64,000 nt of DNA from Escherichia coli (GTDB lineage: Bacteria > Pseudomonadota > Gammaproteobacteria > Enterobacterales > Enterobacteriaceae): NCBI RefSeq assembly GCF_050920415.1, contig NZ_CP169309.1. The stretch is one strand, 5' to 3'. This document shows positions 24,743 through 52,349 of the stretch, in pieces; position 1 is the stretch's first letter, and every line of letters begins with the position of its first letter. A program made the position numbers and the translations under genes. The notes below the pieces were generated by a model that ran no database searches, was not told the DNA's origin, and saw only the letters and a program-made list of their open reading frames with translations.

Positions 24743-24774
24743 GCCTGATAGCCAGAGGCTATCAGGCAACACTT

Positions 24775-28174: not shown

Positions 28175-28444
28175 TTATTTTTTAACTTTAAATTTCTTCT
28201 GCCAGACCAGCAGTTCAAACACGCCGAAAAGGAAAATGCGCACCTTTTCGGCGGTGGTCATCTGCGGGCCATCTTTCGGCAAAGTGGATTTCAATAGCGC
28301 CAGCTGCATACCATGCATCAGCACGGTAAAAATCAGCGCCACGTTAACGAAAATATTCAGCGGACGCGGGAAGGGATGCACCAGGTTGAGGATTAAAAAT
28401 CCCCAAACGCAGAGCATTAACAAACGTCCAATATTAATCAACAT
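28175..28444 (-). CDS. yhhL: DUF1145 small membrane protein YhhL (89 aa)
   Basis: Internal ATG giving MLINIGRLLMLCVWGFLILNL...; overlaps rsmD stop by 11 nt. Confidence 0.75.
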   Translation of the reverse strand: MLINIGRLLMLCVWGFLILNLVHPFPRPLNIFVNVALIFTVLMHGMQLALLKSTLPKDGPQMTTAEKVRIFLFGVFELLVWQKKFKVKK

Positions 28445-30720: not shown

Positions 30721-31389
30721 ATGATTCGCTTTGAACATGTCAGCAAGGCTTATCTCGGTGGGAGACAGGCGCTGCAGGGCGTTACGTTCCATATGCAGCC
30801 GGGTGAGATGGCGTTTCTGACCGGTCATTCCGGCGCAGGGAAAAGTACCCTCCTGAAGCTGATCTGTGGGATTGAGCGGCCCAGCGCCGGGAAAATCTGG
30901 TTTAGCGGCCATGACATCACGCGTCTGAAAAACCGTGAAGTTCCGTTTCTGCGCCGCCAGATTGGCATGATTTTCCAGGATCACCATCTACTGATGGACC
31001 GTACTGTCTACGATAACGTGGCGATCCCGCTGATTATCGCCGGTGCCAGCGGTGACGATATTCGTCGTCGTGTATCGGCGGCGCTGGATAAAGTCGGGCT
31101 ACTGGACAAAGCGAAGAACTTCCCTATTCAGCTTTCCGGCGGTGAACAACAGCGTGTTGGCATTGCCCGCGCGGTGGTGAACAAGCCCGCGGTACTGCTG
31201 GCGGATGAACCGACCGGTAACCTTGACGACGCGTTGTCAGAAGGAATTCTACGTCTGTTTGAAGAATTCAACCGCGTTGGGGTAACCGTATTGATGGCAA
31301 CGCACGACATCAACCTGATTTCGCGGCGTTCCTATCGCATGCTCACCCTGAGCGATGGTCACTTGCATGGAGGCGTGGGCCATGAATAA
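30721..31389 (+). CDS. ftsE: Cell-division ABC transporter ATP-binding protein FtsE
   Basis: 222-aa ORF with Walker [10 protein letters not shown] and signature LSGGEQQR. Confidence 0.95.
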
Positions 31390-32440
31390 GCGCGATGCAA
31401 TCAATCATATCCGGCAGTTTGGCGGGCGTCTGGATCGCTTCCGTAAATCGGTCGGCGGCTCTGGCGACGGCGGTCGTAATGCGCCGAAACGCGCGAAATC
31501 CTCGCCAAAACCGGTAAACCGCAAAACTAACGTTTTCAACGAACAGGTGCGCTATGCCTTCCACGGCGCATTGCAGGATCTGAAAAGCAAACCGTTCGCC
31601 ACGTTTTTAACGGTGATGGTTATTGCCATCTCTCTGACGCTGCCCAGCGTCTGTTATATGGTGTACAAAAACGTTAACCAGGCGGCGACGCAGTATTATC
31701 CGTCACCGCAAATCACCGTTTATCTGCAAAAAACGCTGGACGATGACGCCGCTGCGGGCGTGGTGGCACAGTTGCAGGCCGAGCAAGGTGTAGAGAAAGT
31801 AAACTATCTTTCTCGTGAAGACGCACTGGGCGAGTTCCGTAACTGGTCTGGTTTTGGTGGTGCGCTGGATATGCTGGAAGAAAACCCGCTTCCGGCAGTG
31901 GCGGTGGTAATCCCGAAACTCGATTTTCAGGGGACCGAGTCACTGAATACCTTGCGCGATCGTATCACCCAGATCAACGGCATTGACGAAGTGCGAATGG
32001 ATGACAGCTGGTTTGCCCGTCTGGCGGCGTTGACCGGGCTGGTCGGGCGCGTTTCGGCAATGATCGGCGTATTGATGGTGGCGGCAGTGTTCCTCGTCAT
32101 CGGTAACAGTGTGCGTCTGAGCATCTTTGCTCGCCGTGACTCCATTAACGTACAGAAACTGATTGGTGCGACAGATGGTTTCATCCTGCGCCCATTCCTG
32201 TACGGTGGCGCATTGCTGGGATTTTCTGGCGCATTGCTGTCATTAATTTTGTCGGAAATTCTGGTCCTGCGTTTGTCTTCGGCGGTTGCGGAAGTGGCAC
32301 AGGTTTTCGGAACGAGGTTTGATATCAATGGCTTATCTTTTGATGAATGCCTGCTATTGCTGCTGGTATGCTCGATGATTGGCTGGGTGGCAGCCTGGCT
32401 TGCCACGGTACAACATTTACGCCACTTTACGCCTGAATAA
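31382..32440 (+). CDS. ftsX: Cell-division ABC transporter permease-like protein FtsX (352 aa)
   Basis: ATG overlapping ftsE 3' end; [20 protein letters not shown]...; 4 TM segments. Confidence 0.9.
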
Positions 32441-32564
32441 TAAAAGCGTGTTATACTCTTTCCCTGCAATGGGTTCCGTAGCAGGGAAAGAGACCCCGTT
32501 GTCTCTTCCCGGTATTTCATCTCTATGTCACATTTTGTGCGTAATTTATTCACAGCGTTGCATT

Positions 32565-32591
32565 GAACTTGTGGATAAAATCACGGTCTGA
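32565..32591 (+). promoter_or_regulatory. Sigma-E dependent promoter (rpoH P3)
   Basis: GAACTT-N16-TCTGA, matching the sigma-E consensus, ~95 bp upstream of the rpoH start. Confidence 0.7.
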
Positions 32592-32684
32592 TAAAACAGT
32601 GAATGATAACCTCGTTGCTCTTAAGCTCTGGCACAGTTGTTGCTACCACTGAAGCGCCAGAAGATATCGATTGAGAGGATTTGA

Positions 32685-33539
32685 ATGACTGACAAAATGC
32701 AAAGTTTAGCTTTAGCCCCTGTTGGCAACCTGGATTCCTACATCCGGGCAGCTAACGCGTGGCCGATGTTGTCGGCTGACGAGGAGCGGGCGCTGGCTGA
32801 AAAGCTGCATTACCATGGCGATCTGGAAGCAGCAAAAACGCTGATCCTGTCTCACCTGCGGTTTGTTGTTCATATTGCTCGTAATTATGCGGGCTATGGC
32901 CTGCCACAGGCGGATTTGATTCAGGAAGGTAACATCGGCCTGATGAAAGCAGTGCGCCGTTTTAACCCGGAAGTGGGTGTGCGCCTGGTCTCCTTCGCCG
33001 TTCACTGGATCAAAGCAGAGATCCACGAATACGTTCTGCGCAACTGGCGTATCGTCAAAGTTGCGACCACCAAAGCGCAGCGCAAACTGTTCTTCAACCT
33101 GCGTAAAACCAAGCAGCGTCTGGGCTGGTTTAATCAGGATGAAGTCGAAATGGTGGCCCGTGAACTGGGCGTAACCAGCAAAGACGTACGTGAGATGGAA
33201 TCGCGTATGGCGGCACAGGACATGACCTTTGACCTGTCTTCCGACGACGATTCCGACAGCCAGCCGATGGCTCCGGTGCTCTATCTGCAGGATAAATCGT
33301 CCAACTTTGCCGACGGCATTGAAGATGATAACTGGGAAGAGCAGGCGGCAAACCGTCTGACCGACGCGATGCAGGGTCTGGATGAGCGTAGCCAGGACAT
33401 TATCCGCGCACGCTGGTTGGACGAAGACAACAAGTCCACGTTGCAGGAACTGGCTGACCGTTACGGTGTTTCCGCTGAGCGTGTGCGCCAGCTGGAAAAG
33501 AACGCGATGAAAAAACTTCGCGCTGCTATTGAAGCGTAA
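32685..33539 (+). CDS. rpoH: RNA polymerase sigma-32 heat-shock factor RpoH
   Basis: 284-aa [54 protein letters not shown]... Confidence 0.95.
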
Positions 33540-33558: not shown

Positions 33559-33592
33559 AACCCTGGATGAGAGTCCGGGGTTTTTGTTTTTT
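33559..33592 (+). terminator. rpoH intrinsic terminator
   Basis: Stem AACCCUGGA/UCCGGGGUU (one G-U pair) followed by TTTTTGTTTTTT. Confidence 0.7.
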
Positions 33593-51179: not shown

Positions 51180-51215
51180 CCCCGGTCGCGTGCTGATGTA
51201 CGCGACCGGGGTTTT
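51180..51215 (+). terminator. yhhW intrinsic terminator
   Basis: 11-bp stem CCCCGGTCGCG/CGCGACCGGGG followed by TTTTG. Confidence 0.7.
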
Positions 51216-51353: not shown

Positions 51354-52349
51354 ATGAAAAAGAAAAGACCCGTACTTCAGGATGTGGCTGACCGTGTTGG
51401 CGTGACCAAAATGACGGTCAGCCGTTTTTTACGCAACCCGGAGCAGGTTTCCGTCGCTCTACGTGGCAAGATTGCCGCCGCTCTTGATGAACTGGGTTAT
51501 ATTCCCAATCGCGCACCCGATATCCTCTCTAACGCCACCAGCCGGGCGATTGGAGTCCTGTTACCTTCACTCACCAACCAGGTTTTCGCTGAAGTATTAC
51601 GCGGTATCGAAAGCGTCACGGACGCACACGGTTATCAGACGATGCTGGCGCACTACGGTTATAAACCGGAAATGGAGCAAGAACGCCTCGAATCAATGCT
51701 TTCCTGGAATATCGACGGACTTATTCTCACCGAACGTACCCACACGCCCCGCACCTTAAAGATGATTGAAGTAGCGGGTATTCCGGTGGTGGAGCTGATG
51801 GACAGTAAGTCGCCGTGCCTCGATATCGCCGTCGGTTTTGATAACTTTGAAGCGGCACGCCAGATGACCACCGCCATTATTGCTCGCGGGCATTGTCACA
51901 TTGCCTATCTCGGCGCACGCCTCGACGAACGTACTATCATCAAACAGAAGGGATATGAGCAGGCGATGCTGGATGCAGGCCTGGTGCCGTATAGCGTGAT
52001 GGTCGAGCAATCTTCTTCTTACTCTTCCGGTATTGAACTGATTCGCCAGGCGCGGCGGGAATATCCGCAGTTGGATGGCGTATTTTGTACTAATGATGAC
52101 CTGGCGGTCGGCGCGGCGTTTGAATGTCAGCGTCTGGGGCTGAAAGTTCCTGACGATATGGCGATTGCCGGTTTCCACGGTCATGACATTGGTCAGGTGA
52201 TGGAGCCACGGCTGGCGAGCGTGCTGACGCCGCGTGAGCGGATGGGCAGCATTGGCGCTGAGCGCCTGCTGGCGCGTATTCGTGGCGAATCTGTGACACC
52301 GAAAATGTTAGATTTAGGTTTCACCTTGTCACCGGGCGGATCTATTTAA
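51354..52349 (+). CDS. gntR: LacI-family gluconate repressor GntR
   Basis: 331-aa ORF with N-terminal HTH (LQDVADRVGVTKMTVSRFLRN). Confidence 0.95.
   Translation: MKKKRPVLQDVADRVGVTKMTVSRFLRNPEQVSVALRGKIAAALDELGYIPNRAPDILSNATSRAIGVLLPSLTNQVFAEVLRGIESVTDAHGYQTMLAHYGYKPEMEQERLESMLSWNIDGLILTERTHTPRTLKMIEVAGIPVVELMDSKSPCLDIAVGFDNFEAARQMTTAIIARGHCHIAYLGARLDERTIIKQKGYEQAMLDAGLVPYSVMVEQSSSYSSGIELIRQARREYPQLDGVFCTNDDLAVGAAFECQRLGLKVPDDMAIAGFHGHDIGQVMEPRLASVLTPRERMGSIGAERLLARIRGESVTPKMLDLGFTLSPGGSI

Follow-up and report, generated by a model that had tools for sequence, protein, structure and literature searches.

Rho-dependent transcripts have been described whose precise 3′ ends lie just past stable stem-loops without a uridine tail, with enrichment of C over G and rut sites immediately downstream of such stem-loops, and with stems that protect the RNA against PNPase and RNase II (Dar & Sorek 2018). 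According to a later preprint, such 3′ stem-loops are conserved. Here we describe a hairpin just past the ftsX stop codon of Escherichia coli, referred to below as hairpin 1 (HP1), which is most likely a U-less protective 3′ stem-loop of this already described class, in an unusually compact arrangement.

The window is the whole stretch of DNA that was analysed, 64,000 nucleotides of one strand of E. coli contig NZ_CP169309.1; its plus strand corresponds to the minus strand of MG1655, and MG1655 coordinates are obtained as 3633468 minus the window position. The spacer between ftsX and rpoH measures 244 bp and is without a classical terminator. Both flanking genes are borne out by a 321-nt query across the site, which is found in 5425 of the 5426 complete E. 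coli genomes, and the hairpin stretch in the window has the same sequence as in MG1655. Both a 75-nt and the 321-nt query match at a median of 1 site in each E. coli genome; the element is single copy, and a dispersed repeat of the REP/BIME type is thereby ruled out. About 31% of E. coli genomes differ from the window somewhere within the 75-nt query, and the loss of a single T from the 5′ arm, a rare variant (32459–32461; strain FCI51 and metagenome L134), gives a bulged A in HP1. The features of the locus are as follows.

31355–32440, plus strand: ftsX open reading frame, from the ORF list (the end of the MG1655 ftsX coding sequence, 3601028, is window position 32440)
32438–32440, plus strand: ftsX stop codon, TAA
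32449–32457, plus strand: putative rpoH P1 extended −10 element TGTTATACT (TGnTATAMT), invariant in 29/29 distinct Enterobacteriaceae sequences, abutting the stem, with the transcription start site (TSS) 7 nt past its last base
32456–32467, plus strand: HP1 5′ arm CTCTTTCCCTGC, the perfect complement of the 3′ arm, with which it covaries
32465 (±1 nt), plus strand: rpoH P1 start, position 8 of the 10-nt 5′ arm (TSS 3601003 of Yan 2018)
32468–32480, plus strand: HP1 loop with a 4-bp inner helix, AUGG/CCGU, from folding
32481–32492, plus strand: HP1 3′ arm GCAGGGAAAGAG, with an invariant core GCAGGG and compensatory changes in the outer 4 pairs
32484–32510, plus strand: hairpin 2 (HP2), GGGAA(A)GAGAC / GUCUCUUCCC, tentatively predicted in P1-initiated RNA, reusing part of the HP1 3′ arm
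32491–32530, plus strand: C-rich, G-poor, rut-like tract, from base composition
32498, plus strand: ftsYEX mRNA 3′ end, 6 nt past the 12-bp stem, or 8 nt past its inner 10 bp (transcription termination site 3600970 of Yan 2018)
32685, plus strand: rpoH ATG

HP1 resembles the class of Dar & Sorek (2018) in being stable (−24.5 kcal/mol), in lying just past a stop codon without a uridine-rich tail, in having a precise transcript end (32498, 146 reads) a few nucleotides past the stem, although this end is not among the dominant ends of Adams 2021, and in being followed directly by a C-over-G tract. It differs from that class in that, for ftsYEX, we infer both the dependence on Rho and the protection from exonucleases, and in that the hairpin is interlocked with the promoter of the next gene, with a 3′ arm that is apparently reused in HP2.

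Canonical intrinsic terminators, among them that of rpoH itself (about 33560–33590; GGGGTTTTTGTTTTTT) and those of two Vibrio loci (L008 and L009), share with HP1 a position after the last gene of an operon, a G+C-containing stem, and a transcript end 6–8 nt past the stem. HP1 differs from them in having neither a U-tract nor an upstream A-tract, in its C/G-rich hybrid, and in its many ragged ends. Where a canonical terminator would have about 4 or more U in 8–9 nt, the 10 nt past the 12-bp HP1 stem, ACCCCGUUGU, contain three U and no U run; the canonical distance of 7–9 nt between stem and end is matched here, with the end at +6 when counted from the 12-bp stem and at +8 when counted from the 10-bp stem.

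Two further systems provide points of comparison. In attenuators and riboswitch-controlled Rho terminators (the trp leader, mgtA, ribB), mutually exclusive hairpins share one strand. Likewise, the HP1 3′ arm (segment 2) can pair either with the 5′ arm (segment 1) or with a downstream pyrimidine segment (segment 3); here, however, the choice would depend on where the transcript starts rather than on a ligand or ribosome, and the 2:3 pairing is a predicted one. The hairpin of the ompA 5′ UTR is a 5′-terminal stabilising stem-loop, and RNA started at P1 is similarly predicted to have a base-paired 5′ end. In contrast to the ompA type, the remnant left in P1 RNA comprises only 3+4 bp (−4.5 kcal/mol) and is missing the conserved, covarying outer stem; such a 5′-terminal structure calls for the whole hairpin to lie within the P1 RNA, whereas the start at 32465 falls inside the 5′ arm.

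Structure and conservation of HP1

The original prediction, made from the sequence alone, had placed here a perfect 10-bp stem-loop with arms CTTTCCCTGC (32458–32467) and GCAGGGAAAG (32481–32490) around a 13-nt loop, beginning 18 nt past the ftsX stop. Arms and loop are read in the sequence as described, the distance holds with the TAA at 32438–32440, and all 10 bp pair, but the length was understated, as the pairing runs over 12 bp. The minimum free energy (MFE) of HP1 is −24.5 kcal/mol (z = −7.0), a stability equalled by 0 of 200 shuffles, and RNA with its 3′ end at 32498 folds in silico (−25.6 kcal/mol) into HP1 followed by a tail of 6 nt. Directly past the stem lies ACCCCGTTGT, which has no T-run (the RNA there reads ACCCCG), and a consensus terminator scan called no terminator at the hairpin; both results uphold the earlier statement that HP1 is not a classic intrinsic terminator. 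A terminator acting on the antisense strand was considered and rejected, as the minus strand has AGUAUAACACGC past the hairpin instead of a U-tract.

Taken alone, a 10-bp stem would be unremarkable, because dinucleotide-shuffled windows yield about one each (1.4 ± 1.5, counting perfect inverted repeats of 10 bp or more around a 3–20 nt loop, overlapping ones included). The real window gives 18 such counts at 9 loci; the eight loci other than HP1 lie at 3707–3742, 6864–6900, 19340–19369, 24743–24767, 28222–28253, 51180–51211, 51386–51423 and 60105–60139. What excludes chance as the origin of the inverted repeat at HP1 is its 12-bp length and, above all, its conservation with compensatory changes: the hairpin is real and conserved.

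The comparison behind this statement drew on three sets of ftsX–rpoH spacers: one from 13 Enterobacteriaceae genera, obtained via FtsX homologues and RpoH-anchored genome loci; one from about 60 more metagenome contigs, anchored on the rpoH ribosome-binding region and hence independent of the hairpin; and outgroups out of the RpoH-anchored set. HP1 was found in all Enterobacteriaceae loci analysed once L150 and L111, two metagenome contigs of low coverage whose hairpin stretch is probably misassembled, had been left out. Every Enterobacteriaceae sequence analysed has TG-n-TATA-(A/C)-T right after the ftsX stop, with the hairpin adjoining. Across 29 distinct sequences the HP1 core CCCTGC/GCAGGG is invariant (29/29), and the outer pairs vary from U-A to C-G, to A-U, or by paired deletions. 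Pairing is found in 90.8% of the cells of this alignment, compared with about 50% when the partner is slid by 1–3 columns, and changes on both sides occur at 6 pairs (22 cells). The resulting covariation score was reached by 0 of 500 shuffles, with the 13-species set concordant, and RNAalifold, applied to the same alignment, independently predicts a 10-bp helix with 4 compensated pairs.

G.U pairs are tolerated in the HP1 stem, the invariant cores are separated by a loop of 12–20 nt (31 distinct sequences), and the MFE folds of most species place a small inner helix within that loop. Because of the compensatory changes, the tolerance of G.U and the 12–20 nt loop, the comparison points to a fold of single-stranded nucleic acid, which in practice means RNA, as the conserved entity, rather than an operator in duplex DNA. 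Outside the Enterobacteriaceae, the same position is occupied differently. The two Vibrio loci (L008 and L009) have canonical terminators, consisting of A-tract, hairpin and U-tract, right after ftsX; Photorhabdus (L003:1081-1102) has an unrelated U-less 8-bp hairpin 20 nt past the ftsX stop; and in Acerihabitans TGTTATAAT is kept and a comparable hairpin is absent. By analogy, these outgroups lend support to a 3′-end role for this position.

The hairpin carries no annotation in RefSeq. A scan of 32300–32900 with Rfam covariance models (E ≤ 10) returned no relevant family, only two chance-level matches elsewhere in the range. Open-access full-text literature searches on rpoH P1 and an ftsX terminator found no description of the hairpin and did not bring up the rpoH and ftsYEX papers of the 1980s, and a full-text search by the numeric coordinates of the site returned unrelated papers only.

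Mapped transcript ends, the P1 start and HP2

The 3′ end of ftsYEX transcripts has been recorded in a published full-length dataset. In the second sheet of the SMRT-Cappable-seq supplement, which we took as the rich-medium sheet, the transcript 3600970–3604315 on the reverse strand is labelled “novelTTS” and covers b3464, b3463 and b3462, that is, ftsY, ftsE and ftsX (Yan 2018). The ftsY start is represented there by 633 TSS reads, 146 of which stop at 3600970 and 43 at most 50 bp downstream, with 69 reads running past 3600970 by a median extension of 70 nt (Yan 2018). The method captures transcripts through the 5′ triphosphate and so favours RNA that is unprocessed, although the 3′ ends may still be processed according to the authors (Yan 2018). 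The canonical rpoH terminator served to calibrate the coordinates, its end in the dataset lying 7–8 nt past the stem, within the U-tract; the position 32498 itself comes from the supplementary table of this single dataset.

Because 32498 sits within the loop of the next hairpin, HP2, only HP1 can be the terminal structure of an RNA that ends there. A transcript 3′ end at the hairpin is what the original prediction had proposed to look for, and one is mapped 6–8 nt past the stem; the Term-seq data of Adams et al. (2021), for their part, list no dominant 3′ end at 36009xx or 36010xx in any of three conditions, and the end may be a minor one, or below threshold for a modestly expressed operon. 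The TERMITe supplements gave no match for the 3′ end.

The same dataset places a transcription start inside the hairpin: its M9 sheet lists an operon at 3599880–3601003 on the reverse strand, with 55 TSS reads, covering b3461 (Yan 2018, Supplementary Data 1). This start, at window position 32465, lies 220 nt upstream of the rpoH ATG, and its spacing from the −10 element, 7 nt, is the same in 13 of 13 species. The position agrees with what we take to be the classical location of rpoH P1. From this geometry and the mapped start, TGnTATAMT would be the extended −10 element of P1; a consensus promoter scan misses this promoter, which is without a −35 element. Like the 3′ end, the start position derives from one dataset and its supplementary table, and the start-site tables of Cappable-seq 2016 and ROSE 2023 gave no match for the site.

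The overlap of P1 with HP1 is the most informative feature of the locus. Although the hairpin had been described as lying upstream of the rpoH promoters, the extended −10 element of P1 overlaps the first 2 bp of the HP1 stem, and transcription from P1 begins within the 5′ arm. As a consequence of this start position, mRNA from P1 is unable to form HP1, and only RNA arriving from ftsX can do so. The 5′ partners of the compensated outer pairs (32458–32461) lie upstream of the P1 start and are missing from P1 RNA, so that selection on HP1 acts through the read-through RNA, that is, ftsYEX RNA.

In RNA that starts at P1, folding suggests a different use of the 3′ arm. HP2 has a predicted energy of −12.7 kcal/mol in E. 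coli (z = −2.9), and MFE folds of RNA from the P1 site show pairing of the 3′ arm with downstream sequence in nearly all species, and for 22 of the 44 distinct sequences the HP2-like pairing is better than in shuffles (p ≤ 0.05). Species of the Klebsiella type carry a near-copy of the 5′ arm, CUUUUCCUGC, further downstream, with which the 3′ arm GCAGGGAAAG can pair over its full length. C32494T, a polymorphism common in E. coli that is carried by LY180 and FCI51 and by two sequences from metagenomes, converts a C-G pair of HP2 to U.G, but the arm of each species fits its own downstream tract only slightly better than do the arms of others (mean −0.6 kcal/mol). The E. coli folds also allow a shortened HP1 to coexist with a 7-bp HP2. 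On these models, reuse of the 3′ arm in HP2 by P1 transcripts is plausible. HP2 followed by TTTCAT was considered as an efficient attenuator of P1 and rejected, as P1 reads reach the rpoH terminator.

Proposed role and alternatives

We hold with moderate confidence that HP1 is the 3′-terminal stem-loop of ftsYEX mRNA, at which trimming stops after a probable Rho-dependent termination. Among the three options that the original prediction had offered for the hairpin (a stabilising 3′ hairpin, an RNase processing site, or a protein-binding site), this corresponds to the first, which is favoured by the position of the ftsYEX 3′ end 6–8 nt past the stem in the full-length dataset. What is established is the structure of HP1 with its conserved, covarying arms, the layout of the promoter, and the 5′ and 3′ ends mapped in the published data. 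The steps that connect them would run as follows. Polymerase coming from the ftsY promoter would transcribe both arms, and the RNA would fold into the very stable 12+4-bp HP1. Since there is no U-tract, and a G+C-rich hybrid (GACCCCG) forms just past the stem, HP1 itself probably does not release the polymerase. Transcription would instead stop diffusely in the untranslated C-rich leader over the next ~100 nt, most likely via Rho, and 3′-to-5′ exonucleases (PNPase, RNase II) would trim the RNA back until blocked by HP1, giving a defined and presumably stabilised end 6–8 nt past the stem. P1 mRNA, having no 5′ arm, would form no HP1 and would continue into rpoH, with its purine-rich 3′ arm probably paired with the downstream pyrimidine tract as HP2.

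For the Rho step, the tract at 32491–32530 is a candidate loading site on the basis of its composition, with 33% C and 15% G in E. coli and means of 33% C and 14% G in a set of 45 distinct Enterobacteriaceae sequences. Diffuse termination followed by trimming would account for the ragged ends that extend over ~70 nt beyond 32498. A Rho-sensitive region has been reported in this spacer, with a best coordinate of 3600870 (window 32598), a Rho score of 1.92 and p = 1e-11, from a comparison of 800-nt windows (Adams 2021). This coordinate coincides with the start region of the sigmaE-type promoter P3, and the score is ambiguous, because induction of the rpoH promoters by bicyclomycin could give the same signal; the Rho dependence of the ftsYEX end is thus unproven. 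Position does not separate trimming from true termination either, because hairpin-driven termination also ends 6–8 nt past the stem.

Intrinsic termination in E. coli needs a weak rU:dA hybrid, and a hybrid rich in rC and rG should resist release. This bears on the alternative that HP1 is a factor-independent, U-less terminator that releases polymerase 6–8 nt past the stem, with neither Rho nor trimming involved. Its appeal lies in the very stable stem, in an end-to-stem distance of 6–8 nt that equals that of the canonical rpoH terminator in Yan 2018, in the fraction of site-reaching reads that end exactly there (146/258, 57%), and in the capture by 5′ triphosphate, which favours unprocessed RNA. 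We nevertheless regard it as unlikely: the RNA past the stem is not U-rich and the consensus scan is negative; the other 43% of reads have ragged ends past the site, a pattern unusual for intrinsic termination (at rpoH, 18 reads end at the terminator and 0 pass); and the caveat of the authors about processed 3′ ends applies here as well. Processing could also take the form of endonucleolytic cleavage, by RNase III in the stem or RNase E beside it, splitting ftsYEX from an rpoH co-transcript. The 12+4-bp helix of HP1 approaches the size of RNase III substrates, but the RNAs in question retain a 5′ triphosphate and have their mapped end beyond the helix, and few ftsYEX reads reach rpoH (median extension 70 nt), which makes this explanation very unlikely and leaves the suggested RNase processing site, as a cut inside the stem, unsupported.

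The remaining alternatives place the function of the palindrome at P1 itself. One is that selection acts in the rpoH P1 leader, where the invariant TGC...GCA top and the inner helix would form a 5′-terminal stem-loop that, together with HP2, sets the stability or attenuation of P1 mRNA, with the full HP1 as a by-product. RNA from 32465 does fold as a 5′-terminal 3+4-bp hairpin with no unpaired 5′ nucleotide and HP2 directly after it, and the prediction of HP2-like pairing in nearly all species and the E. coli polymorphism that keeps the HP2 pair as G.U speak in the same direction. This account is improbable given that the compensatory changes fall in the outer four pairs of HP1, whose 5′ partners the P1 RNA does not contain, that the hairpin left over at the 5′ end has little stability (−4.5 kcal/mol, z = −1.4), and that the covariation specific to HP2 is small. 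The other takes the palindrome as an operator in double-stranded DNA, bound by a dimeric regulator over the P1 start site, as a perfect inverted repeat centred about +10 from that start, with an invariant core in 29 of 29 sequences, might suggest. An operator would be expected to have fixed half-site spacing and conserved sequence, whereas the spacing here is 12–20 nt among close relatives, the outer positions change on both arms with pairing kept, in part by G.U combinations that are non-complementary in DNA, and the loop holds a small inner helix in the predicted folds of most species. We know of no regulator with this site and consider this reading extremely unlikely; the spacing, the tolerance of G.U and the covariation of both arms likewise count against the protein-binding site that had been put forward.

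A protective 3′ end at HP1 would explain how ftsYEX and rpoH, both of them essential and each regulated in its own way, are separated within a 244-bp spacer. It would give ftsYEX a defined, conserved 3′ end, which is unannotated in RefSeq and Rfam and appears as “novelTTS” in the sole dataset that records it (Yan 2018); the end itself was already known, unremarked, from that published supplementary table. The major rpoH promoter is physically interlocked with HP1, and bases 32456–32492 serve both units, which is relevant to engineering of the rpoH regulatory region and to ftsX 3′ fusions or deletions.

Beyond a protective role of HP1, we consider a start-site-dependent RNA switch that insulates rpoH from the upstream operon to be conceivable but fairly unlikely. 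In such a switch, transcripts from the ftsY promoter would fold HP1, leaving the C-rich tract at 32491–32530 exposed for Rho termination within ~100 nt, whereas P1 transcripts, being without HP1, would mask the pyrimidine tract in HP2 and run on into rpoH. If this were true, the start point of an RNA would decide the fate of polymerase over the same DNA, a simple ligand-free route to promoter-specific termination.

Other elements of the spacer

Several other sequence elements were seen around the hairpin and are recorded here as separate observations. In the last ftsX codons, ~35–50 bp upstream of the P1 start, lies a direct repeat TTTAC-N5-TTTAC (32416–32430), the other strand of which, GTAAA-N5-GTAAA, we take to match the CpxR-box consensus. 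Activation of rpoH P1 by CpxR is cited in one retracted paper. Within the spacer, two blocks, the T-rich TTTCATC (32515–32521) and TGTCACATTTTGTGCGTAATTTATTCACA (32526–32554), occur in almost all Enterobacteriaceae and are far better conserved than the stretch between them and the hairpin. The conserved blocks in 32513–32554 are presumably regulator sites, of the CRP/CytR region.

Further downstream, GAACTT-N16-TCTGA (32565–32591) forms a sigmaE-type promoter with an expected start at about 32598, which we take to be the classical rpoH P3. In two conditions of the Term-seq data of Adams 2021, a very strong “orphan” 3′ end lies at 32664–32666 (MG1655 3600804/3600802), 19–21 nt before the first codon of rpoH; it may stem from processing, from attenuation or from a small RNA derived from the leader. 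Between these two, TGGCAC-N5-TTGCT (32629–32644) is a perfect match to the −24/−12 elements of sigma54 promoters, and a genomic-SELEX peak of RpoN has been reported between rpoH and ftsX, at 3598870 in its authors’ coordinates, which apparently follow an older version of the MG1655 sequence.
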